DNA of 64,000 bases, taken from contig JAYWIR010000053.1 in assembly GCA_036172245.1 (NCBI GenBank), forward strand, positions 310,001 to 374,000, written 5' to 3'. Origin of the DNA: Raillietiella orientalis (taxonomy: Eukaryota). Positions 1,415 to 52,798 of the stretch are shown here, one piece after another. How positions within the stretch are numbered: the first letter of the stretch is position 1; each line of letters starts with the position of its first letter. The translations under genes were made by a program, and so were the position numbers. The notes beneath the pieces are model-generated. The model searched no databases, had not been told where the DNA came from, and saw only the letters and a program-made list of their open reading frames with translations.

Positions 1415-3478
1415 AGATTTTCCGACGTCAGACGTTCATTGAAGTTCGATAGCACTTGTCCTTACTGACCCGGAGGCGGATAAGATCCTTCACTGGCGCC
1501 GGGACGGCAAAAATAAAAGAAAACAAAAACAAAAAGAGAAAAACGTCTGGAGGGCAATGTTTCTGAGGTGGGGGAGGGAAGGAGGGGATCACGGTGCGCC
1601 GTGAGCAGGCCTTTGCATCCGGTTTCGGATGCGAACAAGTGCCGGCAAATGTTTTTGAAGTCGGCGCCAACGGCACGCTTTCTCAAAGGAGAACGCTGCC
1701 CAGTGGATGGCATTCCGGCTGGTCCTACCTCTCCTAGACGCCGTCCACTTCTCCAGGATACCGCGTATGCAGCAGAGCACTGCTACGCTTCCGAAGGCTG
1801 GCAAGCCGTCTCGCGTCACGAGGCGTCTGAATAAGGTTTTCGGGTCACCCTCCGGAATGTTGAGGATCGTCCAGAGTCTGTCCCACATTCCGCGGAGGGC
1901 AACACACTCCAGAATCAAGTGAGAGAAGGTCTCCCTTTCCCCGCACTCTGCACAACTAGCATCCACATTCTCCGTTGTCCAGCGAGACAGGCGTGCTCTG
2001 CTTAAAAGTCGCCACTGGAGGAGAAGCAACGCCGTCTCCTGCCACTGCAGGGGAAGGGTGCCGTTGTTCCATGAGGCTGGGGGCCACCTCACCTCCTCCG
2101 GAGGTATACCGAGCAGCGCGCTTCAGCGTAAAAGTCCGTTCCACGGGACAGTCGGGGTACTAGCGTCCGCTAGTTCCCTCGGCGTCCACGCCTTCAGCAA
2201 ATTTTTCCTGCCTCCGTTGAGGCAGGACACTTCCCACGATGCCTGTTGGTGGCTTTTTTGAAGTTCCCTAAGGAAGGGCAGCACTAAGGCAAGGGGGGTG
2301 AAGGAAGCCCACAGAAGATTCCGTGGGTTGGAAACGATCAACAGGAGTGGCTGACCAGCGTGCCTCCCTCTGCGGAGGCAGGAGAAGTCCTCATCGCTGG
2401 TGTCATTGATCTTCGCCCATGCAGAAACGTACCCCTGAAGCCAAGTAGTGCAATCCGCTGGGATTCAGGAGATCCAAGGGTTGTGTCTCATCAGGGCAAC
2501 CAAGTCCCGCAGCTGATGACCACAATGTTTCAGGCTGCGTTCGTTGGCTACCAAAATTGAAGTCAGTCCGAAGCAGCCGGTTGCCCTGTGAGCAAGGAGT
2601 CTTGCCGATGCATACCAGGGTGCTGTCCAAAAGTTTGCCACAAGAGCAAGTTTTCTGAATTGGTGCTGTCGCTCCATGCGCTCCAACGTCAGGAGACCAA
2701 GTCCAGCGTCCCTGCGTTTAGCGCACAAGTCTTTGAGCGGGACGCGGGGCCTCCAATTGCCCCAGAGGGCTTTTCGTATCAGGCTCCTAGTCCGTGTCCT
2801 AATTTGGTAAGGAGTAGCGCGCACAAAAAGTAGGGGGCGAAGGAGGGGGGCCGCGAAAGCGTTCCATACCGTGGCCCGTTCCTGCAAATGAAACTTGCCG
2901 TCCCGGAACGGGCCGATCGCCAGCTCCACCTTTTGTAGACGGTCGGACCAGGCTTCTGCAGAGCAGAAGTCCCCCAACGGAACGCCAAGGTACTTGATGT
3001 ACCTGCCCGTGGGGATCCCCAAGCGGATCCAGTCCGACCGTCCGGCCCTCGTCGAGTCGGTGAAAAGCAACGACGATTTCGTCCTGTTTACCTGGAGGCC
3101 TGTTCCACGGTATAGCAACTCGAAGAAATCTTCGAGCGCCGATGCCTGGGTTGACCCGGGATGCAGGAGCAGAAGATCGTCGGCATAGGTCGACACGGCA
3201 GGCGTGCCGGGACACGAGCTCGACAGGGTTGCCAAAGTCTCCCTGTATGCTCTTAGCACCAACTCAAAGTAGATGCTGAAGAGCAGGGGGCTGAGGCTGT
3301 AACCCTGCCGGATGCCACGACGAACCGGCACGCCGAAGACGTTGCGGTCGCTGAAATTGATATTGATGAGCGCGAAGCGCCAGCAGGAGCGCAGGAAGGC
3401 CATTAAGACGGCCGGAAATCCCAAGCGTTCCAGGAGTTCCAGAAGGAGTTCCTCGTCGACGCAATCGAAAGCTTTACG
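1415..3478 (-). mobile_element. 3' half of a LINE ORF2 (RT from RKAFD to zinc finger) plus part of the 3' UTR
   Basis: RGIRQGYSLSPLLF, YADD, KYLG in ORF 2465-3424; CAECGERETFSHLILEC in 1589-2092; begins at RKAFDC next to the 5' end of a B element. Confidence 0.85.
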
Positions 3479-3482
3479 TCAG

Positions 3483-5454
3483 CTAGAGCGGACGTGTTTC
3501 CTCGGTGCTCCTCGTGCCGAAAACCGTCCCTAGGTGTAGGCTTCGTGTGTGGTGGTGGTCGATCAGGCAGCAATGCCTGACACGACCACCAGTGCGTGTC
3601 AGGGGGCTGTGGCAACGTCGCCTCCTGAAGGAATGGAGTGCCAGGTGGCGGCGGCAACGTCGCCTCTAAAGAAGGTGGAGTGCTAGGAGGAGGCGGCAAC
3701 GTCGCCTACACTGGCGAAGGAGGTGGGGGCGTCCGCATCTACAAAATCGGTCCCCGCTGCAGCGCGGGCGTGGAGCGATGTCGTGTCGGCGCCATCGCCT
3801 GCAGACGCGGCGGAATTGTCGGCCTATGTGGAGGAGGGGTACAACCCCTCATTGTTCTACAAGGTAGGCAAATTATATTCTTCTGAGAGTGCACGCGCCT
3901 TTTCGAAGGGGATGCGCGCTCTCGATGTTAAAGAGGAGTAGCTCTGCGCTATGACCATTCGTAGCGGGGGGCAGTACGTAGAGGTGATCTGCAACCATGC
4001 AGATCTGGCCCAAAGTCTGCTTAAAATCCTTGTGGTAATGAAAGCATGCAGGCTTCTTCCTGTTACGGCGGACCACAGTATGGTGGTCTACCATTTAGGA
4101 GTTACCGCGCGGATGCGGAAAGAACAGATACGCTTCGCGTTGGGAAAAGAAGGCACGGTCCATGCAGTATGGACCAAGCCTAGTCCTTTCGAGGACTATA
4201 CCACAGTTCAGTGCGGCCTCACGGTTGTCCGTGTAACCGTTTGGGAGGGCTCTACCCTTCCCCACAAACTGGTGGTCGGCGGAGTAAGCGTCGACCTCTG
4301 GTACGTGGGTAAGCCCAAATACTGTGGCTTCTGCAACACGTCGGGACACCTCAAAAGGAGGTGCCCCAACGTACAGTGCCAGGTATGCGGGACAATGGGC
4401 CACACGAAGGAAGTGTGTCCACAATCCGCTGTGCCCGTGGTTTCCGCGAGGAACCTAAAAAAACGCGCGCGGCTGCTACAGAAAAGGCTGGGGGCGAAGG
4501 CTGCCGCTCAAGCTGTGCCACCCACACCCGTGATCCAGGCCGAAGCCGACACCCCGGCAACGAATGCCGAAAAGATCGACAAACGCGGACAGGTGTCGGA
4601 ATGCCAAGAAGTCACAGCGAAAAAGAAGAAAAATTCGAAGAAAGAACGACGAATCGAAAAAAAGCTCGCCTACCAAAATAAAAAACAGCAGGTTAGCGAG
4701 AATTCAAAAGAGAGCAACGTCGTCGTGGAACGCGTCCCCGCCGAACGCCGCAAGGTAGAAATCGCTGCTACCGACGAGCAACCCACTGTTGAAGATGTCA
4801 ACAGCGTGGGGAGCGAACCGGCAGAAGCGTCCTTCATCGAGACCGTGATAGATGACGCCGCCTTCGAGCGTGCGGCGGAAGAGCTGGCTGCATAGTTGCA
4901 GCCAGACCCCTCCAAGGCTGGAAAAAAGGCAGTGAGGCGTCCGGACTCCACCGAGGAGTCGGTAACTTCCGACCTTGAAGCGCAGGACGGAAACCAAGTT
5001 TCCATCTCCGCGGCACCCCGCCGGAAGGCTGGAAGGAATTCCAGCAAACCCCGGAAAGCCCCTCTCCAGGTCGAAGACGTGGAGATGACTTCCGACAGCT
5101 AGGGTGCCATGAGCGTGTGAGAATCCCGGGAATCGTTACTCGAGAGACCATTACGCACAGACACGAAACAGATGGAGGGGGTTGAAGCCGGAAAGGTACC
5201 CAAGGTGCCTGAGGAGGCTGAAACCCTAATGTTCATCTCACCCGCCTCGGAAGAGTCGGGTTCCCCCACACCGTCATCTTCCCGGAAGTAATGCCGGAAA
5301 TCTCCTCCCGCCGTCGTCTGCGCATCGCCGTTTGGAACGTGAACGGAATGACAGACGCCGGCAGGAGACGATACATGGCCGCCATTCTAGGATCGTTCGA
5401 CCTTGTGCTGCTGCAGGAGATCCATGTGATCTCTGCAGAACAAGCGCAGGAGAT
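3483..5454 (+). mobile_element. 5' part of family B LINE: 5' UTR, disrupted ORF1 (ATG 3573, stop 5289-5291), ORF2 start
   Basis: CTAGAGCGGACGTG 5' motif; knuckles CGFCNTSGHLKRRC and CQVCGTMGHTKEVC; TAATG overlap; IAVWNVNG...QEIH; in-frame stops present. Confidence 0.88.
3605..3710 (+). repeat. Three degenerate ~40-nt tandem units (core GGCAACGTCGCCT) in the B ORF1 N-terminus
   Basis: Core seen at about 3611, 3653 and 3695; the B copy near 52600-52670 has two related units (AATPPPEAME / AATSPPEAME). Confidence 0.7.
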
Positions 5455-8400
5455 TTCTCACCCGGTCACGCCTGGGCGTTTATTCCATATAACATAACCA
5501 AAAAAAGCAATTTTACAAAATAAACCAGTTAAGAACCAAACTCCCAACCGACGACTGAACAAGAATAAAGAGAATATTGCTGCCACGCAGGGCAGAGTAA
5601 CAGTTTTGTGAACGATGTGGGGGAGCCGGGAACGCAAAGAAACCAAAATAAAATAAAAACAATGAATAAGGAGGACGGGATAAGGGTCTTTGGGATCGCT
5701 TTGGAAGACACAAAAATAAAAGCATGGGCACCGGAAGTTTTACCGAAAGAACGAGGACGCGGTATATGTGGGCGAGAGGTCGCAGGGGTCAACGGATTAC
5801 GCAGTTCTCAGAGGTGTGTAAACCGGCGATGTTTGCCGGTGATGTCCTAATTCACCTTGTCACGAAGATGAGACCACCTGGAAGCCTTCTTCATGAATTG
5901 AGCTGCAAGCAGGTGAGCCTCCCTTTGCTGCGATGACAACTCCAGGGCGTAGCGGGACTTTACGATGGCGCGAATGCAACACATGGTTGCGACAATCGCG
6001 CCAACCGAAAGTCCATTTCTGCTGAAGAAGCGCCGCAGCACATCATTGGCAGTGCCTCCTTGTGGCATGATGGCCGAAGTGAGCCTTCGCCACAGTTCCC
6101 GGAGGTCACCGCAGTCCAGCAAAACGTGCGGAAAAGACTCGATCTCTCCGCACCTTAAACAGTTTGCAAAGCAGCTCCCCCGGAAGCGAGGCTTGGCTGC
6201 CTTTTTCAGTCTAATGCACAATGTAAAAAGAGCAGCACATCTTGTTTCCACTTAAGGGGGAACACAGAGCTGTCCAAACAAACGGGGGTACCACTACCTC
6301 TCCGGGGGGCACACTTAAATGTTCGCTCCACCGAAGCAGTCCCTTCGCCCGATTCCGAGGTGTGGCGGCTTGCACCAGCTCCTTTGTGGTCCAGCTACGG
6401 AGGAGCTTACTGACTACCGCTATTCTGCAGGAGAGCTCCCATTCCGCCGGTAGGCAACCGTCGTTGCTTTCCCTGAGGGCACACAGCGCTGCGGCGATTG
6501 GTGTGACGGCCAGACGATCAGACAACTTCTTGTCCTGCATGACTTCGTCCATTTGATGACTGAGGAGAAGTCGCAGGCGTCGAAGATCTTCCGGGCGCGT
6601 TCCTTCGGAAGCTGGCCACGATGAAAAAGATTCCTGCCGCCATGCACTAATGTTCATGGGGCGGCAGGAGATCCAACTTTGGGCTTCCAGCAGAGAGGAC
6701 AGCTGCCTCAGCGGGAAGCCAAACCCTATTCTGGTGTGCCGAAAGTGGGGTAGCAACGAAAGCAGTCCCTCGCTTCCCGTGCAGCGCCTCAGTATAAGGC
6801 GTGCGGGTAAGCACCACGGCGTACACCACAGCTTGGCACAGAGCCGCAGCATGCGGAACTGAACCTGCAGTTCGATGCTGTTTAAGTCGAGGATGCCCAA
6901 GCCTGCATCCTGACGCGCCGCCACCAAGTCTTTAAGTCTAACACGGGATCTTGCAGCGCCCCACAACGCTTTGCGTAGAAGGCGCTGCGCCCAGACTTTG
7001 ACTTCCTGGGGGGGTGGACAAACAAAAAACAGGGGGCGGAGGAGGGGAACAACCAAGGTGTTCCAGATGCAGGCCCGTTCCTGCAAGACGAACTCGCCTT
7101 CTGAAAACGTACCAAGTGCAAGCTCTGCCTTCCGAAGGCAGTCCGACCACGCTTCTGAGATGCAGAAGTCGCCCAACGGCACGCCAAGGTACCTGAGCTA
7201 CCTGTCGGTGGGGATCCCCAGGTCGATCCAGTCAGACTGCCCCTCCCACGTCGCACCCACCGGAACAACCATACACTTACTGCTGTTAACGCTCACGCCC
7301 GCACCGCGACGAATCAACTCAAAGAAGTCTTCAAGCGATGTCGCCGGGGTGGACATGGGCAACAGGAGAAGCAGGTCGTCGGCATAGTCTGCCACGGCCG
7401 GCGTACCTGGACAGGAGCTCGGCAGGTTGGCTAGCGTCACCCTGCCTAATTCCTCGTCTTACCGGCACGCCGTAAACGCGACAGCCACAGATAACAATGG
7501 ATGTAATCGCGTGGCGCCAGCAGGAGCGCAAGTACGCCAACAGCGATGCCGGAAGACCCAGACGTTCCGAAAGCTCAAGAAGAAGCTTTTGGTTCACGCA
7601 ATCGAAAGCTTTGTGCAGATCGACTGCAACCGCCAAGGCTCCCGGTGTCTCCCTTTGCGTCCCGCGCCTCCGTCGGTAAGAGATCGGAAGCGTCGCTTCC
7701 GCACGACGATCCACCGCCACACGATGCTGCAATTGCAGTCATGTGCAGATGAACAAGAGATTCGCGTCCATGGACCGCCCAGGAACAGCGTACGTCTGCT
7801 CCGGTCTTACCAAGGATTCCGCGATCCTACCCATCCGCGCCACCTAAAGTGTCGAGAACAACTTGACGTCCGAATTCACTAATGTGATCGGACGCCAGTT
7901 GTTCAGTTGGCGCAAATCTCCGCCTTTCGGCAGTAGACGCACCTTCGCTGAGCGAAACGAGGCGGGGACATCGCCCGAGTCTCGCATCAGCGACGAGAGT
8001 TGGAGCACAAGGCGGATGAGCTCCGCCGCAGAACACTGAAAGAATTCCGCAGGGAGCCCATCTTCGCCTGGCGCTTTTCGTCTCTTGAGCAATGAGATGG
8101 CCGAGGAAATTTCCTCTGCCGTGTAGGGCTCATCAAGACGCGCCCGTTCCTCCTCGTCTACAACAGGTGCATCAATCGGCAGAAGCAGCCGGGAGAGGCT
8201 GCGTTTCGTCTGTGCCTCTGCATACAGAGAAGAGTGATAGCGCCTGACTATCACTCGCACGTCGGCTGGAGCCGAGCATTCCTGGTCCTGGTCGTCGAGC
8301 AGAACTGTCGCCCCTGACTGCCACACCTGGCGCTCGGCCTTGGCCTTGTACTCGGATAATCGACCAACGTCCGCGCGCCTGGAAAAGGAGCGGGCCTGCA

Positions 8401-10005
8401 GAAAATCTCTGCTGTTGGCTACGCCCTCTCCGAAGCCGCGCGGAAGCTGGTGCAAGGGAAACCGGCACCATAACTCGCGGACCGATCTTTACAGATCGTC
8501 CCAGTCCTCCAGCTCACTTATGGCAAAGTCGAGGAGGTACTGGCGAATATACTCAGCCGCCTCCAGGTTGCTTAGCCAGTCTGCCGACATCCTTCAAAAA
8601 CAGTTTGGAGGCCCCTTGCCTGGCGGGAGCAACTCGAACTCGAGCCTGTTGTGGTCTGAAAGCACGGACGGCATGGCACCTCTCCGACACACTCGACAGA
8701 GCAAGTGTTCATCAAGGTATACGTGGTCCGGCGTTGCTGCCATAACAGGGTCGCTAGCGAACAAGTTGCAGGCGTGCACGGACGCGCACATCTCTTCCGC
8801 TAGCAACTTTTCCCTTTTCTGGGATCTATTCTCGGAAAGCAGGTGGACGTTAAAGTTCCCCGCAATGAGATGGGCCACAGTAGGGTGAGATCGAGTGAGT
8901 TACTGGCTTTGAAGGGTACCGAAGAACTCAATCCTTTCGGTCCATCGTCCAGCACCGCTCGGCGCGTACTCGTTGGTTACGACAAGGTCGATCGAGTCGG
9001 ACCACTTGAGTACAAGCTGTCCCACTCGGCCTTCCGTGTCGAAACGAACGCTGCGCACCGCTCCCGCCAAAGTTCCTTGCACGAGGAAAGCGACGCCGCA
9101 CGTACGTGCAACGCCGCACCTATAAAGTAGCGTTCCGCCCGCGCGCCGTACGATTTCGGCAGCCTGCTCTCCGGAGATGCTGTGAATCTCCTGCAGGAAC
9201 GTCAAGTCGAAGGCGGGCAGAGCGTCAGCCAATAGTCGCCTCTTCTCCTCGTGTTGGAGCCCGTTGACGTTCCAAGAGGTTAAGGCAACACGACGAGAAG
9301 ACGCAATTACCCTCATGACGGCTGGGAAAGCGAGGCCGTGGTGCTCGCCTCACCCGGCGAGCGGGCAGTAAGCAGCACGACGGGCTGGAGGGCGCACTCG
9401 CCACCGGCCTCAACTGTGCTGCACGTAATCGGGTGCTCCTCCCCGGGTGCAGAACCTGTGGGTTCCGGGGTGAGCACTCGCCGTTTCGCGGCGAGTGTGT
9501 CACGCCTCTGGGCTTGAGCCCTGCGTGCGCTCGCTCTTGCGCGAGTGACGCGTCGTTCAGCGGCGCTATCGGACTCCTTTGTGGAGTCAGATGCTCGCAC
9601 GATCGACGTGCGCTTGCATCCATCCGATTGCACCGGGATAGCCTTCCCGGCGGTCACAGAAGCGGACTTGCACGCGTTGAAGGCGCAGGCTTTTTCCTTG
9701 GAAGAGGCACAAGCAGCGCGTGTTTTCGAATTCCCGCGACTGCGTTTTCCTTTGGAAGAGCTCAGGGATTTATGTTGCGTAGCTTTTTTTGGAGATTTTT
9801 CTTTCCTCCTGTCCACAACCTGCTATTCGCCTCCGCGATTTTCGGAAGCTTCCGCGACAGAAGTTGCGGAAACCTCCAGGATTTTGGCTGCGTTCTCTGG
9901 GGTCGTTGCTTTCGCTACGCCTTTAAATGGCGGCAACGGAGTCATATTGTTGAAAGTTGTTCGCTGACTCGGCAGGAGATTCCTCCTCTCCTGCCGAGAC
10001 AGCGA
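5455..10005 (-). mobile_element. Family D LINE copy D1: ORF1 C-terminal half, disrupted ORF2, 3' UTR
   Basis: Colinear with the intact copy at 24941-29558; has stops, frameshifts and a 62-nt RT deletion near 7439; terminal hairpin 5461-5476. Confidence 0.9.
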
Positions 10006-13000
10006 ACTTGCTCCGCGGCTCAAAGTATTGTGCTCTTGACAAAGTAATTAGTTAATTGTGCTCGTGTGTGCCCGGAGAGGGGAAGTTTTTAAGACGAAAC
10101 TAAAAAAAAGAAGCGGCGAGGAGATCGCGGCAAAAGACCTGCAGTGGTCCCGTGCAGCAAGACGAGCTGCCAGGATGCAGGCACCTAGAAGAGGAGTGGA
10201 GAGACCGTCGTCCCCCATGGAAGCCATGGAGGTAACGTGCGGCAACGGCGAGGCGGTGGCAGGCATGCCGAGGATCGCGCCCGCGGCGGGCTTTGCTGCG
10301 CCGGCGGCGGCGATGCCAAGGGTCGTGCCCGCGGCGACGACGGCGGAGGTCGTGCCCGCGGCGGCGACGCCGAGGATCGTGCCCGCGGCGGGGAAGGTCG
10401 CGCCTGCGGCGGCGATGCCGAGGGTGCCGCCCGCGGCGGTAACGGCGGCAACGTCGAGGTTTGCGCCCGCGGCGGTGGCGACCCAAGCGGGACCCGCGGG
10501 CGTCCACGCGGTGCAGGGAGCGACGCCATCTTGTTCGGCTGCGGCGTCGCAGCCCTTTTCTTATGCGTCATTGGCGGCTGGACAGGCGAGTGACCACCCA
10601 CCTCGGAAATTCGGTAAGCCGCTTAGCGGAAAAGTACTAAAAGTGGACCGACCAATAGTCGAAATAGGCCCCAACGTGAAGCCCATTATCTTCAAGACGT
10701 GGCTAATAAAATTAAATAACATCAGGGAGGTCTATTTGTCCCTCGACAAGACGGACATAGACTTTGATCGCATTCAGGCGATCATTCCATCGAACAACGG
10801 ATTCACAGTCTTTAAAGACTGTGAAAACATTAGAGAGCGATTGATCCAGAAGGGGATCCATATACAAGGACGGATGGTTTGTGGTATTGGCGAAATGCCA
10901 TACACAACCGTCTTTTTAAACGGCATCTCCATCCTCACACCGCAACTAGCGGTGTGGAATTCCTTGGAGCAGTTTGGGGAAGTTCTGGACCTTGAATTCC
11001 AGAACTTCTCTGGAAACATATTTTCTGGCGACATGATCCCAAGATGAAGTTGAGGGAGGGAGCGGTGATCCCTGGATTGGCCGTTATTGACGAACAATCC
11101 CAGGGAGTGAATGTGCGTTACCGGCAACAACCGGTATTCTGCACCGGGTGCAAGCAGTTCGGCCACAGGGCCGGCTCTTGCCCAACGTGTCGTTGTTTCC
11201 GCTGCGGCAAAGTAGGACATCAAGTCCGAAACTGCCCGCAGCCGGAGGTGTGCTCCTTCTGCAAGAAACACGGACATGCGAAATGGAGCTGTGCGGAGTT
11301 TGCAAACTGCAGGAGGATTCGAGGTCTCTCTCCCGTGAGAGAGAGAAACACCGAGGAGGCGGAACAGCCTCAGAAGGCAGGAAGGCCGAAGAAGGTGAAA
11401 GAAGCCGTTGCGGTATCGGAAAACGGCTTCATACAGGTAGGGAAGAAAGGAAAGAGGAGGATGCTCGTCAAGGAGCAAGAAACCCCTTTTATCCTGGAAC
11501 GTGAAGAGCAAGAAGGCGAGAGGATGGAGGTAGCGCAGGAAGGCGCGGAAGAAGAAATAGCCAAAGCCACTTCGGTGTCGCAGGAGGCCCTGCAATCTAC
11601 GGAGGAGTTCGCATCACTGGCTAATGAAGTCCTAGAAGTGCAGAGCGGTCACCAGCAAGAGAAAATCTTGCAGAAGATCTGCAATGCACAGGAGAACATC
11701 AACCAGGTGGTGGAGGTCGCTGAACGCGAGAAGTTAGAGGAACAGCTTCTCGACGTGAAGGCGAACTTCTGCGCCAAGGTCGAGATAGAGGCGCTATCTC
11801 GAAAATTGATCGCGCAGGCGGAACACTCTTCGGAGGAGGCGGAAATTACCGACCTCACAGGTACCGAGAGTGACGCCGGCAGCGAGAAGCCCGCTGCTTC
11901 TTCATTGTCTGGAAGAGCACGCTCTCTCAGACAGAAGAAGCTCAGGAAGGTTAAAAAATAGGTCTTCCTTTTTTATGGTCTCTTCCCTATCGACCGCCAT
12001 CAGGATGACCATCGCCTCCTGGAACGTAAACGGTGTGGTCGACCAGGGAAAAAGAAAAAGGATTGTGCAGACCGTCGCACAACAAGACATCGTGTGCCTG
12101 CAGGAGAACCACAGGATGGGTCTGGAGATAAGCCAGCGAATGGAACGACGATTCAACGGGCAGATGTTCGTCAACGAAGGAGAACGGTACACGAAGGGTG
12201 TGGCGGTGCTAATAAAGAACCACTTAGCCCCCACAATTCTGGAAGTGTTCTGTCCCCAACCCGTACGAATCATCGGCGTGCGACTGGCCTGGTCCGCGAC
12301 TGTTCACCTTATCCTGGTGAACGTGTACGGGCCGCACAGGCTAAAACATCGTTGCGCGGAGGCGCTGCATGCAACACTCCGGCAAAAGGTCGCCCCTAAG
12401 GACGTCGTGATTGTTGCTGTCGATCTCAAGTTCTTGGATGTGATCATTCATTCGGAAGACGCCAGAGGAAGGACGGCGTATCGACGGCTATCCGAGGAGT
12501 TCGGACTGGTCTGGCGAACAGCAAGCCAAAAGCCAATCGATCACGTCCTGCACAGCACCGAACTTGGGAACCGCATCCAGGGGTTTCGCGACACTATGAC
12601 TACGGTGTCCGATCACCCCCTGGTGCGGTTTTCCCTAAGAACGGAGAATCCTCAGCGGAGGCAAGGCACCAGGGCGGCGCTCGTCAGCATGCCCGTCTGG
12701 TTCGAAACCAGTCCCGGAAATCAGGCTGTCCTGGAGACGATTCTGAAGGCAACAACCATCCGAAAAGTCGCCGACTGGGACAGCCTGAAACACAGAATGC
12801 ACCTGTTATCAAACATCCAGTTCGGAGATAGGCGTTTGAGGCAGGAGGCGTACCGGGAGCTGAACATCCAAGATCGCTCACTCTCGAAGTACTTCGTTCA
12901 GTACGAGAGTCGGTACGTCTTTAAGAACATAAAAGGGTAAGTCGACGTGCTGGAGAAGAGAAATCTGGCAACAGATATCTTCTGCATTCAGAACGACGGT

Positions 13001-15627
13001 CAAAAGCGACAGTCGTCTGAGGACATCGTGGATGTTTTTCAAAGGCATTACACGAAACACTTTAGGCGACAACATCTCTGTCGCTCTAGTCAACAGGCCT
13101 TTCTGAGCTACCTCGAGAAGAGGACCGACGACCTCCAGCGGAACAGACTGGAGGAGGAGATCTCCGAAGAAGAGGTGAAGACTGCGTTTGGGCAACTTCG
13201 CAAGGACGTGACAGCGGGCCCCGACAGTGTACCCATCACGCACTATCAGCGGTACCTGCACGCCTACCTGCGCTTGTTCCACCAATTGACCCTCTGCATC
13301 CGGGAAGAAGGCAGACTACCTCAGTCCTTCTACGAGAGTCATATGAGATTGCTGCCGAAAGGAGGCGACTCTACCCAGATCGCCCAATGGAGGCCAATCT
13401 CGATTCTAAACTCCGATGCCAAGTGGTTGGCGAAGATCTGGTCCAACCGCTTAGGCAAGGTCATGTCAAGACTGATCTCTCTCGTCCAGACATGTACAGT
13501 CCCAGGACGACACATGTCGGACAATGTCAAGTGTGCCCAGGCCACTGTTGGACTCAGTCGATACGTCGGCGAGAACCTGGTGCTGGTGTTCACTGACATG
13601 GAGAAAGCCTTCGACTCCATCGACCACGGGATGCTGCTGAAGGTTCTGGAGAAGCTAGGGCTCCCGGAACACTTCAGCAGCTTCGTGAGGGCGGTACTCC
13701 AGAACCAGTACTGCCGAATCAAGATCAACTGCCAGGAGACGGCAGCAATCAGGATGGAACGAGTAGTCCGACAGGGCGACTCGCTAAGTCCGATGCTGTT
13801 CGTCATCTATATGGAGGCGTTGTCGTCCTTTATCGAGAAGAGCGGACGACTAAGCGGGATTGCCATCGATAGCCAGCGTCTTACCCATCTGGCATACGCC
13901 GATGATCTACTTTTCTTCATCAAGGGAGAGAAAAATCAGCGTGCGTTTCTGGATGTGGTGGACCTGATCGAACAGGGCTTGTGCTTAAAAATCAATTCCC
14001 AGAAGAGCCAGCTTTTGCCCGTCGGAATACTGGATCTCTCCACTCTAACGGGTAGTGGATTCCGTACGGTGGACACGTCCAAGTACCTGGGAGTCTACAT
14101 CGGCGACGGCTCTGCGTCGAAGATGCTGTGGAAGGAATTCCTGGGGAAAACGGCCAAGGAAACAGCCAAGTACACCCGAACGGACCTTGGGATGAAGCGA
14201 AAGGCCAACATATGGAACGAAGTACTTCTTACGAAAGTGCTTTTCGGGGCGGCCTTCGCGAGGATGAACAAGGACTCTACTAGGGAGTTCGACAAGCTGC
14301 AAAGAAAAACACTCTGGGGTCACTATCGCCCAAGAGTAAGACCGAAACCCCTGTGTCCTCCCAGGGAAGAAGGCGGTTCCGGGATGAAGTCGCTTGCACA
14401 TCCCATGGAAATCATGGATACGCGACACATCCTGGACATTGCCACTCACTGGGATGACTGGCCGTATGCGGCGCACAGGGCCTACGCGTTGTTGCTTAAC
14501 AACTCGAAAGGCCTGATGACTGCGCTGCTAGGCAAAGTAGGGAAATCGATAACAATCGACACGACCTGGAGGAAGAAGCAACGGCTGGTGCGGAAGCACC
14601 AAATCAAGATCGTGCCGCGCAGCAGGGTACTCTGGCAGCACGAGTCCATCCTGGTGATCCCTTGGTTGCTTCCTGTCCAGCCGGACACAAGAAGCTGGAT
14701 CTACCAGCGGTACAGAGTTACCCTACTGCAAATCCAGGAGTGGAGGCGAGGAGGCTACCTACATCAAACACGTATACTTCGGTATACAGAGATGATGTTA
14801 GGAAGGTTTACCCACAGGACCCGCGAAGTCTGGTTCAACCACAACGACTTCGCATGGTCGAGGGTAACCAGAACAAACCTCGGAAGGCTTATCCAAGAAA
14901 ACGCCCGTGACACCAGTGCCCTCCAGGAAGCCTGCGAACGCTACGGGAGAGAACGGTTAAACCTGTTAGCGATCGGCACGACGCTCTGGAGGAGTGGCCT
15001 TCCACCGGGCACCCAGGATGACCTCCTGAAGTTTTATCACGGAGGAATCCAGAGTGGGTCCCGATTGCAGCACTTCACAGGAAGACGGGAAGACCGAGAC
15101 TGCGCAGCATGTGGAGACGACGACACGAGACTTCACGTCTTGACGTGTCCCACACTCCTGCATGAATGGCTGATCCTGAAAAGGATCATAGGACTTACCA
15201 ACAAGTCCGTTATGGAGATCCTCGCCGGGATGTTTCATGGGGATGGTAATGTTCCCTGTTACAATCCCATGGTGAGGACGACCATAGCCCTCTTCATCAC
15301 CGCCATACTTGTGCGGTGGTGGAAAATGAGGAAAGCCAGGAGAGCCGCACCACCGATGGAGATCCTACAAGGGCTCTTGAAGAGGTAAATCGGCATCAGG
15401 AACTGCGGAAAGATCCACGCCTGGACCTACCGATTGATCCTGAAGAGAATCCAGGACGACGCCCGGGACCATCCTGCTGGAATTCCCCCTTGAAAAGCAG
15501 AACTCTAGTGCAACCCAAGGACCCCCAAGTGCAAAATGTTTGTATTGAGTGAGTGAGAGTGCGAATGTAAATTTTGTATTTTTATAGAAAAATAAACTTA
15601 CCCCACCCCTTGTGGGACTTGGGGAAA
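10006..15627 (+). mobile_element. Full-length family A LINE copy A1 (~5.6 kb), inactivated
   Basis: ORF1 with three CCHC knuckles, frameshifted near 11040; ORF2 EN and RT split by TAA 12938-12940; flanked by CCTGCCGAGxCxGxGA 16-mers. Confidence 0.92.
10263..10500 (+). repeat. GC-rich coding minisatellite (PRIVPAA / PRVVPAA-like units) in the A ORF1 N-terminus
   Basis: Recurrent GCCCGCGGCG core; also at about 15900-16110, 29816-30050 and 35452-35640, the last with 17 fewer codons. Confidence 0.8.
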
Positions 15628-15643
15628 CCTGCCGAGTCGGTGA

Positions 15644-18600
15644 ACTTGCTTCGCGGCTCAAAGTATTGTGCGCTCGACAACATAATCAGTTAATTGTGCT
15701 CGTGTGTGCCCGGAGAGGGGAAGTTTTCCAGACGAAACTACAAAAGAAGCGGCGAGGAGATCGCGGCAAAAGACCTGCAGTGGTCCCGTGCAGCAAGAGC
15801 AGCTGCCAGGATGCAGGCACCTAGAAGAGGAGTGGAGAGACCGTCGTCCCCCATGGAAGCCATGGAGGTAACGTGCGGCAACGGCGAGGCGGTGGCAGGC
15901 ATGCCGAGGATCGCGCCCGCGGCGGGCTTTGCTGCGCCGACGGCGGCGATGCCAAGGGTCGTGCCCGCGGCGTCGACGGCGGAGGTCGTGCCCGCGGCAG
16001 CGACGCCGCGGATCGTGCCCGCGGCGGGGAAGGTCGCGCCTGCGGCGGCGATGCCGAGGGTGCCGCCCGCGGCGGCAACGGTGGCGACGTCGAGAATTGC
16101 GCTTGCGGCGGCGTCGTCCAGGGAGGACCCGCGGGCGTCCACGCGGTTGAGGGCGAGACGCCATCTTCTTCGGCTGCGGCAGCGCAGCGCTTTTCCTATG
16201 CGTCGGTGGCAACTGGACAAGCGAGTGTCCACCCCCCAAGAAAATTCGGGAAGCCGCTATGCGGTAAAGTCCAAAAGCTGTATCGAACGATCGTGAAGTT
16301 AGGGATCGAATGTGCAGCCCATCATTTTCAAGATTGGGCTGATCAAGTTCAGTAATATCAGGGAGGTGTATCTGTCCCTCGATAAGACGGATATCAATTT
16401 TGATCGCATACAGGCGATCATACCGGCAAATAACGGGTTCACAGTCTTCACAAACTGTGAAAAGATTAGAAAGCGATTGGTCCAGAAGGGGTTCAATATA
16501 CAAGCGAGGATGGTTTGTGGTATTGGCGAAATGCCATACACAACCGTTTTTCTGAACATCATCCCTATCCTCACACCGCAAGTAACGGTGTGGAACTTTA
16601 TGGAGCAGAATGGGGAAGTTCTGGACCTTTAATTCCAGAACTTCTCTGGAAATATATTTTCTGGCGACATGATTGCGAAAATGAAGTTGAAAGAGGGAGC
16701 TCTGATACCTGGATTAGCCGTTCTTGACAAACAATCCCAGGGAGTGAACGTGCGTTACCGGCAACAGCCGATATTCTTCACCGGGTGCAAGCAGTTCGGC
16801 CACAAAGCCGGCGCTTGCCCAACGTGTCGTGGTTTCCGCTGCGGCTAAGTAGGACAACAAGTCCGAAACTGCCTGAAGCCGCAGGTGTGCTTTTTCTGCG
16901 ATTAACACAGACATGCCAAATGGAGCTGTGCGGAGTTTGCAAACTGCAGGAGGATTCGAGGACTCTCTCCCGTGAGAGAGAGAAACACCAAGGAGGCGGA
17001 ACAGCCTCAGAAGGCAGGAAGGCCGAAGAAGGTGAAAGAAGCCGTTGCGGTATCGGAAAACGGCTTCATACAGGTAGGCAAGAAAGGAAAGAGGAGGATG
17101 CTCGTCCAAGAGCAAGAAACCCCTTTTATCCTGGAACGTGAATAGCAAGAAGGCGAGAGGATGGAGGTAGCGCAGGAAGGCGCGGAAGAAGAAATAGCCA
17201 AAGCCACTTCGGTGTCGCAGGAGGCCCTGTAATCTACGGAGGAGTTCGCATCACTGGCTAATGAAGTCCTAGAAGTGCAGAGCGGTCACCAGCAAGAGAA
17301 AATCTTGCAGAAGATCTGCAATGCACAGGAGAAAGTCAACCAGGTTGTGAAGGTCACAGAGCGCGAAAAGCTAGAGGAACAGCTCCTCGACGTAAAGGCG
17401 AACTTCTGCGCCAAGGTCCAGATAGAGATGCTATCTCGAAAACCGATCGCGCGGGCCGAACACTCGACGGAGGAGGCGGAAGTAACCGACCTCACCGAAA
17501 CAGAGAGTGACGCCGGCAGTGAGAAGCGCGCTGCTTCTTCATTGTGTGGAAGAGCACGCTCTCTCAGAGATAACAAGCTCAGGAAGGCCGAGAAATAGGT
17601 CTTCCCCTTTTATGGCCTCTTCCCTATCGACCGCCAGGAGGCTGAACATCGCCTCCTGGAATGTAAACGGTATGGTCGACCAGGAAAAAAGAAAAAGGAT
17701 TGTGCGAACCATCGCACAACAAGACATAGTGTGCCTGCAGGAGACCCACAAGATGGGTCTCGAGATTAGTCAGCAAATGGAACGGCGTTTCAACGGGCAG
17801 ATTTTCGTCAGCGAGGGAGAACGGAACACGCAGCGTGTGGCGGTCCTAATCAAGAACAACTTGGCCCCCACTATTCTGGAAGTGTTCTGTCCCCAACCCG
17901 GACGAATCATCGTCGTGCGACTCGCCTGGTCCGCTACTGTTCACCTCATCCTGGTGAACGTGTATGGGCCGCACAGGCTAAAACATCGTTGTGCGGAGGC
18001 GCTGCATGCAGCACTCCGTGAAAAAATTGCTTCCAAGGACGTCGTGATTGTTGCTGGCGATCTCAACATATTGGATGAGATTACTCACTCCGAAGACGCC
18101 GGAGGAACGACGGCGTTTCGGCGGTTATCCGACGAGTTCGGACTGGTGTGGCGAACTGCAAGTCACAAGCCGATCGATCACGTCCTGCACAGCACCGAAC
18201 TTGAAAATCGCATCTAGGGTTTTCGAGACATTATGACCACGGTGTCCGATCACCCCCTGGTGCGGTTTTCCCTAATAACGGAGAATCCTTGGCGGAGTCA
18301 AGGCACCAGGGCAGCGCTCGTCAGCATGCCCGTCTGGTTCGAAACCAGTCCCGGACATCAGGCTGTCCTGGAGACGATTCTGAAGGCAACAACCATCCGA
18401 AAAGTCGCCGACTGGGACAGCCTGAAACACAGAATGCACCTGTTATCAAACATGCAGTTCGGAGATAGGCGTTTGAGGCAGGAGGCGTACCGGGAGCTGA
18501 ACATCCAAGATCGCTCACTCTCAAAGTACTTCGTTCAGTACGAGAGTCGGTACGTCTTTAAGAACATAAAAGGGTAAGTCGACGTGCTGGAGAAGAGAAA

Positions 18601-20967
18601 TCTGGCAACAGATATCTTCTGCATTCAGAACGACGGTCAAAAGCGACAGTCGTCTGAGGACATCGTGGATGTTTTTCAAAGGCATTACACGAAACACTTT
18701 AGGCGACAACATCTCTGTCGCTCTAGTCAACAGGCCTTTCTGAGCTACCTCGAGAAGAGGACCGACGATCTCCAGCGGAACAGACTGGAGGAGGTATTCT
18801 TCGAAGACGAGGTGAAGACTGCATTTGGTCAACTACGCAAGGACGTGGCAGCGGGCCCTGTCAGCGTACTTATCACTCACTATCAGCGGTACTTGCATGC
18901 CTACTTGCCTTTGTTTCACCAGTTGACCCTCTGCATCCGCGAAGAAGGAAAACTACCTTAGTCCTTCTACGAAAGCCGGATGAGAGTGTTGTCAAAAGGA
19001 GGCGACCTCACGCAGCTCGCTCAATGGAGGCCAATCTCGATCCTGAACTCCGATTCCAAGTGGTTGGCGAAAATCTGGTCCAACCGCTTAGGCAAGGTCA
19101 TGTCGAGGCTCATCTCTCCGGTCCAAACGTGTGCAGTCCCTGGACGTCACATGTCGGACAATGTCAAGTGTGCCCAGGCCACCGTCGGACTCAGGCAATA
19201 CGTCGGCGAGAATCTGGCGCTGGTGTTCACTGACATGGAGAACGCTTTTGACTCCATCGACCATGGGATACTGCTGAAGGTTCTGGAGAAGCTAGGCCTT
19301 CCCGAACACTTCAGCAACTTCCTGAGGGTTGTACTCCTGAAACAGTACTGCCGAATCAAGATCAACGGCTTGGAGACGGCAGCAATGCGGATGGAACGGG
19401 GAGTCCGGCAGGGCGATTCGCTAAGTCCGATGCTGTTCGTCATCTACATGGAGGCGTTGTCATCCTTTATCGAGAAGAGCGGACGACTGCAAGGCATAAC
19501 AATCGATGGTCAGCGTCTTACCCATCTTGCATACGCTGATGATCTACTCTTCTTTATCAAGGGAGAGAGAAATCAACGAGCGTTTCTGGATGTGGTAGAC
19601 CTGATGGATCAAGGCCTGGATCTAAAGATCAACGCCCAGAAAAGCCATCTTTTGCCCGTTGGAATCTTCGATCTCTCCACTCTAGCGGGGAGAGGATTTC
19701 GAACGGTGGACAAGGCCAAGTACCTGGGTGTCTACATTGGCGACGTCTCAGCGTCGAAGCTATTGTGCACCGAGATCCTAGGGAAAACGGCAAAGGAAGC
19801 AGCCAAGTACACCCGAACGGACCTTGGAATGAAGCGAAAGGCCAACATATGGAACGGAGTACTCCTTTTAAAAGTGCTCATCGGGGCGGCCTTCGCGAGG
19901 ATTTACAAGGAAACCACGATGGAGTTCGACAATCTGCAGAGAAAAACACTGTGGGGATACTATCGCCCAAGAGTCCGACTAAAACCCCAGTGTCGTCCCA
20001 GGGAAGAAGGCGGTTCCGGGATGAAGTCGCTTGCACACTCCATGGAAATCATGGATACGCGAAACATCCTGGACATTGCCACTCACTGGGATGACTGGCC
20101 GTATGCGGCGAACAGGGCCTACGCGTTGCTGTTGAACAACTCGAAAGGCCTGATGACTGCGCTGCTAGGCCGAGCAGGCGTATGGAAAAAAATCGACCCA
20201 ACCTGGACGAGGAAGTAACGGCTGGTGCGAAAGCACAAAATCAAGATCGTGCCGAGAAGTAGGGAACTCTGGCAGGACGAGTCCATCCTGGTGATCCCTT
20301 GGTTGCTTCCTGTCCCGCCGGACACGAGAAGCTGGATCTACAAGCGGTCCAGGTTTACCCTTCAACGAATCCAGGAGTGGAAACGAGGAGGGTACCTTTA
20401 TCACACTCGTATACTTAGGTATATAGAGAAGATGTTAGGAAGGTTTACCCACATGACTCGCGAAGTGTGGTTCAACCACAACGACTTTGCGTGGTCCAGG
20501 GTAACCATAACAAACCTCCGAAGACTAATTCAAGAAGAACACAGTGATATCAGTGCCCTCCAGGAAGCCGCCGATCGCTACAACAGTGAGCGGATGAACC
20601 TGTTAGCGATTGGCAGGACGCTCTGGAGGAGTGACGTTCAACCGGGCACCCAGGATGACCTCCTGATGTTTAAACATGAAGGAATCCAGAGTGGGTCCCG
20701 ATTGCAGCACTACACCGGAAGAAGGGAAGATCGAGACTGCACAGCATGTGGAGACATCGACTCGAGAGTTCACGTCTTCAGGTGTCCCACATTGCTGCAT
20801 GACTGGCTTATCCTGAAAAAGATCATCGGACTTACGAAGAGATGCGTAATGGAGATCCTCGCTAGGATGTTTCAGGGGAATGGTAATGTTCCCTGTTACA
20901 ATCCCATGGTAAACGCGACCATCACCCTCTTCATCACCGCCATACTTGTGCGGTGGTGCAAAATGAG
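15644..20967 (+). mobile_element. Family A LINE copy A2, more degenerate, 3' truncated
   Basis: Colinear with A1; many stops; homology ends at ...GTGCAAAATGAG (20967). Confidence 0.9.
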
Positions 20968-22109
20968 TACTCCAGCTACGGAGGGTGGCTGCGCTGTATC
21001 GGAAAAACTTAGGATTGCTCACCTGTCGCCCTTTGAACGGTAGTGCCTGGTTGCAGGAAACCGTTCGAACGTGGGGACGGTTCGGCATGCAACAATCCCA
21101 ACAGGAACGAAGGTTCCTGTTTGGGGGTTACAGAAGGTGCACGCTTCGCGAGATCCCGGAGGATCCAAAGAAGGGAGCGTAGGCAGGAAGAACCCCCATC
21201 GCTGCTGTGCTGCCCGCGCTGATGGAAGATCTGGACAGCCATGTTGCGACGAAGTGGGTGGTTACAGTAACAATCTCTGGAGAGTAGAAGAAAATAGGAG
21301 AGTGGAAGACGGGCCAGCTAACTGATGCTGCGACCCCGAATACGCCTTCCAATGGAATTCTGCGCTCGGACGCGCTGGTTGATGTTCCCATTTTACATCT
21401 AAAGTGGCCCCCGGTGCTCGTTAACACTTTCGCCCTCCTCTTAAAATGGCTGGAGTGGGCTCTCCTGTTACAGCACTGGGTACTTCCCTGCAACACCCGC
21501 CGACACCACTGGCTCTTGGGAGCGGTGGACCCCAATTGCGTCAGGTGTGGGGAACAAGAGTCCCTCCCCACCTGCTAGTGGATTGTGTTGCCCTTCGGCC
21601 CCTTTGGTTTCGCTTTGCCGCGGCCATCGGAATCCCCTGCGGCAACCCCAGGGACGCACTGAAAGCCCTCTTCGTTGCCGACGCCCTTCGGCCAGCGGCC
21701 TCGTTAGCAGCTTTGTGCTGCCTACGCGGGATCGTCACCGCTTGGAGCAAAGCTACGGGAGGACAACGCGACCAGGGTGCCATCCAGCCAGCCTCCCAGT
21801 TCCTGAGGATGGCGTCCCGATGGCCTTACCTGGATCCAGGAATACAGAAGGAGATTGCCGGCATCCTGCAAAGAATGCAACGGCCCCACCAGCAACTGTG
21901 ATCCCTTCCCTTACCCTCCCAACTTTTTTTATCTTTTTTGTTTTGTTCTTTGTTTTTTCCCCTGCCGTGGTGGACCGTACCGGTCTGCGAACCGGTGACT
22001 AGGCTGGCTCTGTGTTTCTTCGTGCGTGGCTGGAGCAATGGTCTAGCCACCGCACGTTTTTCCAAAGGTTTATTTTACAAAAAAAGGCCCCGGCGAAATC
22101 CGGGGGAAA
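20968..22109 (+). mobile_element. 3' fragment of family B LINE (ORF2 C-terminus, 3' UTR, terminal hairpin)
   Basis: Highly similar to the reverse complement of 47281-48430; ends ...RMQRPHQQL; CCCGG-cgaaat-CCGGG at 22088-22104. Confidence 0.88.
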
Positions 22110-23035
22110 ATCGAACCCCTTGTGGAGATCGACTGCGAGCAATAGGGCCCCCTTCCCCGCCCGGAGGTCCCTTCCTAGCCCGACTGGCGGCCCCAATGTG
22201 GGGTTGCCGACTTTCCCTGTCCCTTTCTTTTCTCTTCTCTGCAGGTGCACCCATGTGCTTGCGAAGAAGAGGTTGGCATCCATACTTCGCGCGGGAACAG
22301 CATAAGTCTGCTCCGGGATAATTACGGATTTTGCCACCTGCCCCTGACGTGAAGCCCATAGCCCTGCTATTAACGTGGCGTTTGTATTCACGATCGTTAT
22401 CGGACGCCAGTTCTTTAAATTCCTGAGGTCTCCCCCTTTCGGAAGGAGCCTCACTCTGGCTGACCGAAACGAGGCGGGAACATCGCCTTCGTCTCGGATC
22501 AGCCTGATCAACTTAAGCAGCAGGGGTGCTAGCTCTTCCGCGAAGCTCTGAAAGAACTCCGCGGGCAAGCCGTCTTCCCCTATAGCTTTACGCCTCTTAA
22601 GCCTTTTGATACCGGCGAGAATTTCGCCCGTGGTAAAAGGCTCGTCGAGGCTTTCCAACTCCTCCTCCCCTATTGCCGGGGCGCCATCCGGAAGCAAGCG
22701 CCGAGAGGCGTTTCGATCCTGGGGCTCCCTGGCGTAAAGGGAGAGATAAAAACTCCGCACGAGATGCCGTACCGACGCCGGGGACGAACATTCATGGCCC
22801 TGGTCGTCCAGCAAGCGGGCCGACCCGGATTGCCAGGCTTGGCGTTCGGCCCCGGCGCGGTACTCGGCCAGGTGACGGACATTAGGGGTTCTCTCGTACC
22901 TACGTGCCTGTAAATAGGCCCGATGGTTGCGAGCACCCTCGCCGAATCCGATGGGCAGGCGATGCAGAGGGAACTGCTCACAGAACTTGCGGACCGATTC
23001 CTTAAAAAGATCCCAGTCCTGGAGATTCCGGAGCG
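22110..23035 (-). pseudogene. Internal ORF2 fragment (EN-RT linker to AVDLHKGFD)
   Basis: KAIGEDGLPAEFF, WRPITIVN, EQTYAVP in ORF 21999-22814. Confidence 0.85.
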
Positions 23036-23037
23036 TC

Positions 23038-35180: not shown

Positions 35181-35363
35181 CCTGCCGAGTCGGTGAACTT
35201 GCTCCGCGGCTAGAAGTATTGTGCGCTTGACAACTTATTCAGTTCATTGTGCTCGTGTGTGCCCGGAGAGGGGAAGTTTCCAGAAGAAACAAAAAAAAGA
35301 AGCGGCGAGGACATCGCGGCAAAAGACCTGCAGTGGTCCCGTGCAGCAAGACCAGCTGCCAGG

Positions 35364-37103: not shown

Positions 37104-37116
37104 GTCTTCCCCTTTT

Positions 37117-40026: not shown

Positions 40027-40764
40027 AGGCTTATCCAAGAAAACGACCGTGACACCACTGCCCTCCAGGAAGCCACCGAACGCTACGGGAGTAAACGGTT
40101 CAACCTGTTAGTGATCGGCACGACGCTCTGGAGGAGTGACCTTCCGCCGGGCACCCAGGATGACCTCCTGATGTTTTATCACGGAGGAATCCAGAGTGGG
40201 TCGCGATTGCAGCACTTCACAGGAAGACGGGAAAACCGATACTGCGCAGCATGTGGAGACGACGACACGAGACTTCACGACTTGACGTTTCCCACACTGC
40301 TGCATGACTGGCTGATCCTGAAAAGGATCATAGGACTTACCAACAAGTCCGTTATGGAGATCCTCGCCAGGATGTTTCATATGGATGGTAATGTTCCCTG
40401 TTACAATCCCATGGTGAGGACGACCATAGCCCTCTTCATCACCGCCATACTTGTGGTGGAAAATGAGGAAAGCCAGGAGAGTCGCACCACCGATGGAGAT
40501 CCTACAAGGGCTCTTGAAGATGAAAATCGGCATCAGGAACTGCGGGAAGATCCACGCCTGGACGTACCGATTCATCCTGAAGAGGATCCAAGACGACGCC
40601 CGGGACTATCCAGCTGGAATTCCCCCCTGAAAAGCAGAACTCTAGTGCAACCCAAGGACCCTCAAGTGCAAAATGTTTGTATTGAGTGAATGAGAGTGCG
40701 AATGTAAATTTTGTATTTTTATAGAAAAATAAACTTACCCCACCCCTTGTGGGACTTGGGGAAA

Positions 40765-43816: not shown

Positions 43817-44140
43817 ACCCGACCGTCGTCATCGAAGCGCACGCCCTTCACGGCAGCGTCGATGGCCGGCTTCACGAAGAACGCGACCCCGCAGGTGTTG
43901 CGGAGGCCCCACCGCCAATACAACCGACCCCCCGCGATCGTCTCGATCTCCTGGAAGTCTGCCGCGGTGATCACGTGTATCTCCTGCAGCAGGGCCAGGT
44001 CGAGCTCACGCAGGGTGTCGGCCGTATCTCGCCTGTTACCGTCGTCGCGCAGCCCGTTGACGTTCCAAGAGGCGGCGCGAATGCAATGGCGACTGGCGAG
44101 CCCAGGTGTTACTCCTGGGAAGATGGCGATGCGGCGTCCG
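43817..44140 (-). mobile_element. Inverted segment: ORF1 end and EN N-terminus
   Basis: Minus strand reads ...ASPSSQE* then ASWNVNGLRDDGNRR...LQEIH; overlaps the next segment by an 82-bp inverted repeat. Confidence 0.8.
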
Positions 44141-52794: not shown

Positions 52795-52798
52795 AGCG

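Follow-up and report, generated by a model that had tools for sequence, protein, structure and literature searches.

Probable antisense insertion of a young LINE subfamily at the K-A-F-D codons of related LINEs in a nested retrotransposon cluster of Raillietiella orientalis

Among long interspersed nuclear elements (LINEs), nesting within the element's own copies has been described for Zepp and ZeppL in the accessible portions of three accounts (PMC8226300, PMC3446292, PMC9940879), and insertion at fixed targets is, in the accessible text of PMC4640811, found mostly in families of the early-branched, Tx1 and R1 groups. Here we describe a locus that appears to combine the two. It lies on contig JAYWIR010000053.1 of Raillietiella orientalis, in a window of 64 kb (the whole stretch of DNA analysed, positions counted from its first letter) that consists almost entirely of non-long-terminal-repeat retrotransposons, as judged from stop-to-stop open reading frames (ORFs) and Pfam. 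One LINE subfamily in it, called B here, is probably a young one that integrates through target-primed reverse transcription (TPRT), oriented antisense, at the codons for K-A-F-D (KAFD) in motif A of the reverse transcriptase (RT) of older copies from its own clade.

The first-pass annotation of this DNA had placed B ends at KAFD codons at five junctions, J1 to J5, and inspection of the sequence bore out every one of those coordinates. At J1, plus-strand positions 3464-3478 (ATCGAA AGCTTT ACG) are the reverse complement of CGT AAA GCT TTC GAT, encoding R-K-A-F-D; they are followed by 4 nucleotides (nt; 3479-3482) and then by the B 5' end, CTAGAGCGGACGTG, at 3483-3496, while the minus-strand ORF of the host LINE (2465-3478) starts with RKAFDCVDEELL and matches the RT domain RVT_1 with an E value of 3e-14. 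J2 is its mirror, with the B 5' end at 52794 (minus strand), filler at 52795-52798 and host CAC AAG GCG TTC GAC at 52799-52813. The B 3' ends adjoin TTCGAT at 22109/22110 (J3), 47280/47281 (J4) and 58182/58183 (J5), and the differing upstream host peptides VHLQRREKKG, MHAQRSKKEG and WQLRQRVSQE are present as quoted. Read in host sense, ...CACAAGGGGTTCGAT is followed by insert TTTCCCCCGG at J3 (22110, host on the minus strand), ...CATAAGGCATTCGAT by TTTCACCCGG at J4 (47280) and ...CGCAAAGCATTCGAT by TTTCACCCGG at J5 (58182), the insert side being the reverse complement of the B 3' end, ...AATAAACGCCCCGGCGAAATCCGGGTGAAA. At the 5' junctions the 4 filler nt come after the complemented B 5' end (CTAG(A/G)G...ACGTGTTT) and lead into CGTAAAGCTTTCGAT (3478-3464) or CACAAGGCGTTCGAC (52799-52813).

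With the intact ORF2 (25297-28902) as reference, host sequence breaks off at residue 583 at the 3' junctions and resumes at residue 579/580 at both 5' junctions, and B is antisense to the host in every case. The B 3' end carries AATAAA, a 5-bp CCCGG/CCGGG hairpin and GAAA, lacks poly(A), and is joined directly to the host sense strand at ...TTCGA(T); beyond the filler at the 5' end the 15 nt closing with TTCGAT recur, giving a 15-bp target-site duplication. In insert sense the fillers read TCAG and CGCT, with 0 of 4 nt common to the two 5' junctions. The complete B copy (47281-52794) sits between ORF2 residues ~299-583 and 579-end of a plus-strand host, H, whose flanks overlap by residues 579-583 and whose two target copies are identical at 12 of 15 nt; excising B, filler and one target copy restores a continuous host. 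A single contig of sequencing run X1 (n = 1, shorter side 41 letters, likeness threshold 80%) links 47274 to 52808 and omits 5533 nt, that is 5514 for B, 4 for the filler and 15 for one target copy, and because it leaves out exactly these parts a related host copy without the insert exists. The other X1 contigs show paralogue-to-paralogue joints only; X1, a DNA run held as contigs, contains 0.16 of the sampled words, and no RNA run was listed. X1 contig depth is 776 over the T-rich, low-complexity 3' untranslated region (3'UTR) at 54440-55066, compared with 2-47 elsewhere, owing to unrelated low-complexity contigs, and carries no copy-number signal. Folding did not support the terminal hairpin as a thermodynamic outlier: it was predicted in 4 of 5 folded BC-type ends, and the z-score fell below -2 in 1 of 6 folds.

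A map of the elements, made by tblastn with the ORF1 and ORF2 of the window's own elements, yields two groups: family A, with four plus-strand copies at 10003-20967 and 29556-40764, and a BC clade that comprises B, the B hosts and further subfamilies, its members being 62-95% identical to one another. The family B of the first-pass annotation and its hosts are placed by tblastn and trees as subfamilies of one LINE clade, not as unrelated families. By its sequence, B is an L1-like LINE subfamily of the apurinic/apyrimidinic endonuclease (APE) type, in the same clade as its hosts. The intact ORF2 (25297-28902, minus strand, 1201 amino acids), whose KAFD codons are uninterrupted, encodes in order Exo_endo_phos (APE, E 3e-11) and RVT_1 (E 1e-19) according to Pfam, the combination that defines APE-type LINEs of the L1 superfamily. 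Its top solved-structure match is human L1 ORF2p (8uw3, 8sxt; E 7e-45), R2 proteins following at ~1e-13; database relatives are at most 32% identical, and a protein atlas search returned generic LINE clusters only. Upstream lies ORF1, whose translations contain two CX2CX4HX4C patterns (putative zinc knuckles) and gave no match in Pfam or solved-structure searches. Target-site duplications (15 nt for B, 13 nt for A) and 5' truncation (a B copy, B', cut at residue 833) are present as expected of TPRT. No 3' end in the window has poly(A); every one terminates in a hairpin and GA(G)AAA, with 3-4 A. Such poly(A)-less ends are familiar from stringent-type LINEs and are compatible with LINE status.

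The positional preference of B within the window is strict. All five B ends (5/5) lie at KAFD, and tail type and site go together, ends with a B-type hairpin loop, CGAAAT or AGAAAT, being at KAFD in 3 of 3 cases and those with a C-type loop at a second site, described below, in 2 of 2. TTCGAT occurs 36 times (17 on the plus and 19 on the minus strand); each of the four copies next to a B end belongs to KAFD codons, the remaining B end (J2) is next to the variant TTCGAC, and none of the 30 copies outside KAFD has a B end. Since each element offers 38-40 CGAT sites on its two strands, and more than 100 GAT sites, the coincidence of three B ends at one CGAT site is not chance. The upstream side of the motif is kept by seven BC-clade copies, three interrupted and four intact: the occupied 3'-side copies read TTCGAT (3/3), and the intact ones TTCGAT (C and C'), TTCGAC and TTGGAT. 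At the same codons the four A copies have TTCGAC (three) and TTTGAC (one), so the window holds two synonymous variants of the motif, TTCGAC and TTTGAC, and a non-synonymous one, TTGGAT. The suggestion of the first-pass annotation that hosts cannot easily mutate so constrained a motif is hypothetical, and these synonymous variants stand beside it. The pattern is that of a target-specific LINE, with independent insertions at one target and a precise 3' junction, in that 3 of 3 B 3' ends lie there in hosts 65-77% alike.

The complete B copy itself reads K-A-L-D at this motif (49370-49381, TTGGAT for TTCGAT). Since its ORF2 is otherwise decayed and spread over several frames, the change is probably decay rather than self-immunity. 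Scanning metagenome contigs with the B 3' hairpin pattern gave 15 loci, all of them chance matches in bacterial coding sequence and none with AATAAA context or a KAFD flank.

The proposal that these insertions arose independently is supported by comparing host and insert divergence across J1-J5 (INDEPENDENCE): inserts are 82-94% identical and hosts 65-77%, with a step at the junction and differing fillers. Identity between J3 and J4 is 93.9% for inserts and 77.1% for hosts, between J3 and J5 82.3% and 64.6%, between J4 and J5 85.9% and 66.4%, and between the 5' junctions J1 and J2 78.9% and 64.7%, and in 5 of 5 pairs compared the inserts were closer than the hosts; because host and insert have diverged unequally, the composite of host and B was not simply duplicated. 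In 100-nt steps across J3/J4 the last host window is 71% identical and the first insert window 91%, rising to 96-100% deeper in the insert. In a tree of ORF2 residues ~914-1187 the three B copies group together (support 93/100), their end branches measuring 0.008-0.07, and three hosts are unresolved on branches of 0.34-0.49; over residues ~359-583 the complete B and the right part of B2, a B-like copy, both with KAFD codons uninterrupted, stand close together and the interrupted hosts apart. The number of events must nevertheless be revised, as the five junctions, formerly read as a site reused five times, represent three insertions, or at most four, into different hosts that had already diverged. 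Four applies only if the 5' part beginning at 3483 and the 3' part ending at 22109 belong to different elements; taken as one host, the J1 and J3 host halves have target copies that match at 10 of 15 nt and a deletion between the two B parts.

KAFD is one of at least four recurrent sites in ORF2, and at each of the four the 5' restart lies 4-7 codons upstream of the 3' stop. Site 2 lies in the APE domain at residues 62-67 (E-I-E), where the 3' end of subfamily C stands at ...GAGAT followed by TTCTCACCCGG. Its hosts are two B-like copies only 67.8% identical, whereas the two C copies are 95.6% identical; the C 5' end (42119) adjoins a host that restarts at residue 62, the junctions fall at 5454-5459, 24940-24945 and 42119-42139, and the 14-nt copies on either side agree at 11 of 14 positions. 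The tail of C is GGGTGAGAAA, as against GGGTGAAA for B, and C is likewise target-specific in the window, both of its 3' ends (2/2) lying at site 2. Site 3 (G-F-G-E-G, residues ~299-308) receives the H 3' end at 54910/54911 and the 5' end of an element X at 46429/46431, and site 4 (residues ~357-367) a 3' end at 63791/63792 and the 5' end of element G at 57510/57511, so that, for each of the two, one host supplies the 3' junction and a different host the 5' junction. Nested insertion into existing members of one LINE family is observed in the window.

Family A adds a further layer. Tandem pairs of A occupy ORF1 in each of the two C copies, antisense to it, with a 13-nt target copy, CCTGCCGAG(T/A)C(G/A)G, between the members of a pair; at both loci this ORF1 site received two insertions. 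Between the loci, identity is 93-97% for C'/C, 99.4% for the first A copies (A1/A3) and ~88% for the second (A2/A4), and the sharp steps at element ends argue for repeated site-specific insertion rather than one segmental duplication. At both loci the younger A lies 5' of the older, the order expected of repeated insertion at one site if its recognised upstream half outlasts each event. The resulting picture is of a fixed site for each subfamily, inside another LINE, and of a Russian-doll nest: A into C, C into B, and B into older copies. The A target falls within a 13-nt inverted repeat (CTGACTCGGCAGG ... CCTGCCGAGACAG) in C ORF1 (9964-10002 and 29517-29555).

Several observations weigh against fixed-site insertion of B and need to be set beside this picture. 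All counts of B ends come from the one window. C and C' have intact motifs with a perfect TTCGATTGCG and are nevertheless unoccupied, and the B-like copy B2 has its 5' end at residue 277, away from KAFD. A LINE 3' end at 61076/61077 (tail ...CCGGAAGTGAA) runs in the same sense as the plus-strand element whose ORF1 it enters, the only sense nesting seen. The run that supplied the bridging contig, X1, may be the window's own source. The two target copies differ at 3 of 15 nt for the complete B and at 3 of 14 for C, where fewer than one difference is expected by our estimate from the 4-6% divergence of the inserts; recombination between inserts may have shuffled the flanks, or the duplication model may be incomplete. 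Finally, independent insertion implied that host trees would not mirror insert trees, and this held for the distances, which differ 2-4-fold, but not for the three-taxon topology, which is ((J3,J4),J5) in both and would be mirrored by chance with probability 1/3. This match of topologies is outweighed by the 2-4-fold difference in distance.

That shared topology, (J3,J4),J5, is also the best point in favor of a single ancient B insertion at KAFD that was copied with its host by segmental duplication, its B parts being homogenized later by gene conversion. We consider this history improbable, although it would fit a region that rearranges (the deletion at 20967-21018, the inverted fragments at 43816-44705) as well as target copies more diverged than expected. 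In each copy, conversion would have had to halt precisely where B ends, and to do the same for C and A; the 5' fillers are alike at 0 of 4 nt within a context that is 65-79% identical; C and C', with KAFD intact, fall in an unresolved group together with the interrupted hosts; and likeness to host H is at least 80% for the contig without the insert, compared with only 77% between the J3 and J4 hosts.

A little less probable again is a purely regional targeting, for example to a centromere-like cluster, combined with a short GA/T preference, in which the shared positions would be coincidental. The primer strand does end in GA followed by T at 7 of 9 BC-type 3' junctions, a short motif, several different sites are used, and Zepp-type LINEs are known from the accessible text of PMC8226300 to cluster by nesting. 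Coincidence is nonetheless hard to reconcile with the same position in 3/3 B 3' ends, 2/2 C 3' ends and 4/4 A copies, despite the abundance of CGAT and GAT in each element; for B alone the chance is ~(1/38)^2, and the 30 TTCGAT copies outside KAFD are without a B end. Twin-priming inversions, or inversion breakpoints of single elements, resemble the head-to-head 5' ends and could fit G (residues 1-~308, minus) beside residues ~357-583 (plus), but we reject them as extremely improbable, since at J2/J4 the B between the host halves is complete from 5' end to 3' end, the flanks overlap by a 15-nt duplication bridged by the contig, and host and insert differ by 25-35% where they overlap, which requires two RNAs instead of one. 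We also rejected 3' transduction, that is read-through carrying an old flank along: conservation is lowest in the 100 nt of host beside the B 3' end (71%, 49%, 50%), and the adjoining 15 nt differ as the hosts do (10-12/15).

Under TPRT at a fixed site, the endonuclease of the subfamily would nick the host sense strand after ...TTCGA(T), and the host 3'-OH would prime cDNA synthesis directly at the hairpin-GAAA tail. The opposite strand would receive the second nick at a distance of 15 nt, and the B 5' junction would gain a few untemplated nt. Recognition of the 3' end would be stringent, since the 3-4 A are uniform and poly(A) is absent, and as the subfamilies differ in both tails and sites, specificity would reside in each subfamily's own endonuclease or ORF2 protein, as in R1- and Tx1-type LINEs (PMC4640811). 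It is doubtful, though conceivable, that RNA-guided self-homing, rather than the endonuclease alone, lies behind the antisense rule and the preference for the best-conserved coding motifs. In such a process the element's sense RNA would pair with the homologous DNA of a relative; the resulting R-loop would hold only where the subfamilies conserve a motif, K-A-F-D being an example, and the exposed host sense strand would be nicked at the nearest GA/T and prime reverse transcription; the new copy would then automatically be antisense and within relatives. Were this so, LINE subfamilies would disable each other's reverse transcriptase, as parasites upon parasites.

The features of the nest are collected in Table 1. 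The LINE segment at 59533-61076 is probably the downstream part of host Z, following a host deletion of ~185 codons.

Table 1. Elements, host parts and junction fillers of the LINE nest, in window coordinates.
Feature	Coordinates	Strand	Description
J1 host, downstream half	1646..3478	-	old BC-clade LINE, ORF2 residues 580-1187; KAFD target copy 3464-3478; from tblastn and RVT_1
Filler, 4 nt	3479..3482		between target copy and B 5' end; from sequence
B copy 1, 5' part	3483..5458	+	5' end CTAGAGCGGACGTG, ORF1 3567-5243, ORF2 residues 1-66; interrupted at site 2 by C' 3' end
C' element	5459..9989	-	complete ORF2 with 3'UTR and the ORF1 C-terminal part; inserted antisense into B copy 1 at site 2 (E-I-E of the APE domain)
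Family A tandem pair	9990..20967	+	A1 10003-15627; A2 15641-20967, 3'-truncated; 13-nt target copies 9990-10002 and 15628-15640; antisense in C' ORF1
B 3' part at J3	21018..22109	+	ORF2 residues 914-1198, 3'UTR, terminal hairpin, GAAA
J3 host, upstream part	22110..23033	-	ORF2 residues 277-583, end ...AAGGGGTTCGAT; target copy 22110-22124
B2 (B-like), 5' part	23037..24944	+	5' end, ORF1, ORF2 residues 1-67; adjoins J3 host at residue 277; interrupted at site 2 by C 3' end
C element, 3' part	24945..29542	-	3'UTR, intact ORF2 25297-28902, ORF1 C-terminus
Family A tandem pair	29543..40777	+	A3 29556-35180; A4 35194-40764; 13-nt target copies 29543-29555, 35181-35193 and 40765-40777
C element, 5' part	40778..42119	-	ORF1 N-terminus; 5' end at 42119
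B2 right part (B-like)	42126..43829	+	ORF2 residues 62-632, restart at site 2; KAFD intact (TTCGAC)
Host H, upstream part	46431..47280	+	ORF2 residues ~299-583; J4 target copy CATAAGGCATTCGAT 47266-47280; left end adjoins X 5' end (46429, minus strand) at site 3
Complete B copy, 5514 nt	47281..52794	-	3' hairpin and GAAA at 47281, ORF2, ORF1, 5' end at 52794
Filler, 4 nt	52795..52798		B 5' junction J2; from sequence
Host H, downstream part	52799..54910	+	ORF2 residue 579 to end, 3'UTR; target copy CACAAGGCGTTCGAC 52799-52813; H 3' end 54910 antisense in G at site 3
Element G	54911..57510	-	5' end, ORF1, ORF2 residues 1 to ~308; 5' end adjoins host Z at site 4
Host Z, upstream part at J5	57511..58182	+	ORF2 residues ~357-583, end CGCAAAGCATTCGAT
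B copy 3 (B'), 5'-truncated	58183..59528	-	ORF2 residues 833-1196, 3'UTR; 3' end is J5
LINE 3' segment	59533..61076	+	ORF2 residue 769 to end, 3'UTR

Three further places in the window depart from simple nesting. At 744/745 the 3' end of a plus-strand element (hairpin loop CATAT, GAAAA) is followed by the apparent 5' region of another plus-strand element, with ORF1 from ~1118 and no target copy between the two; the joint may be a template jump or a tandem insertion. The stretch 20967-21018 is a deletion or recombination joint that leads from near the 3' end of A2 to residue 914 of B ORF2, with loss of the remainder of A2, of the C' 5' part and of most B ORF2 sequence. Between truncated elements at 43816-44705 lie short ORF2 fragments of alternating orientation (residues 8-109 minus, 76-271 plus), probably produced by inversion or deletion and not explained by simple nesting.

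Each B insertion finds a harmless place and at the same time inactivates a competitor, the target being catalytic motif A of its RT. Were the pattern confirmed genome-wide, it would offer a mechanism by which LINE-only clusters grow without damage to genes, a natural set of related APE endonucleases with differing specificities in which the evolution of target choice could be followed, and a case of transposon-on-transposon parasitism whose targets can be dated layer by layer.

The elements share with human L1 their APE and RT architecture, target-site duplication and 5' truncation, and differ from it in ending in a 3' hairpin and GAAA without poly(A) and in their fixed insertion sites. Human L1 insertion sites are loose, of the form TTTT/A. 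In behavior they resemble the target-specific APE LINEs of the Tx1 and R1 groups, which insert into rDNA, snRNA genes, and telomeric and microsatellite repeats: both have an APE endonuclease, both form a precise 3' junction in a target that is multicopy, and in both one site is hit repeatedly and independently, yielding tandem copies. The targets of those LINEs are cellular multicopy genes or simple repeats, whereas here they are coding sequences of sibling LINEs (RT motif A, APE domain, ORF1), and, unlike in the Tx1 and R1 groups, the subfamilies form a chain in which each inserts into the next. A LINE target inside another transposable element has a precedent in Tx1L of Xenopus, which inserts into the Tx1D DNA transposon. 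The target of Tx1L is, however, an unrelated DNA transposon, and not, as here, a conserved catalytic motif of related LINEs hit in antisense.

Closest in described behavior are Zepp (Chlorella/Coccomyxa) and ZeppL (Chlamydomonas), likewise L1-type LINEs that, as far as the accessible accounts describe them, insert into their own copies and so build nested clusters. Self-nesting LINEs of this kind are known for producing centromere-like clusters. Those accounts speak of tandem arrays of mostly 5'-truncated 3' ends, whereas the copies here are largely full-length, antisense to the host copy and free of poly(A). Insertion here is at fixed codons, with a different site for each subfamily; the accessible Zepp literature mentions neither a fixed site nor an RT-motif target, and the accessible text of 10.1101/2025.03.28.645958, on Zepp-type nesting, says nothing on target sites. 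Proteins of Coccomyxa, Chlorella or Chlamydomonas were absent from the 44 database matches. Our literature search, made in full texts, turned up no account of a LINE with the RT motif of other LINEs as its target, although one may still be in print. Fixed-site LINEs and self-nesting LINEs are each known, and it is their combination in the coding motifs of relatives that appears to be new, with Zepp-type self-nesting as its nearest counterpart.

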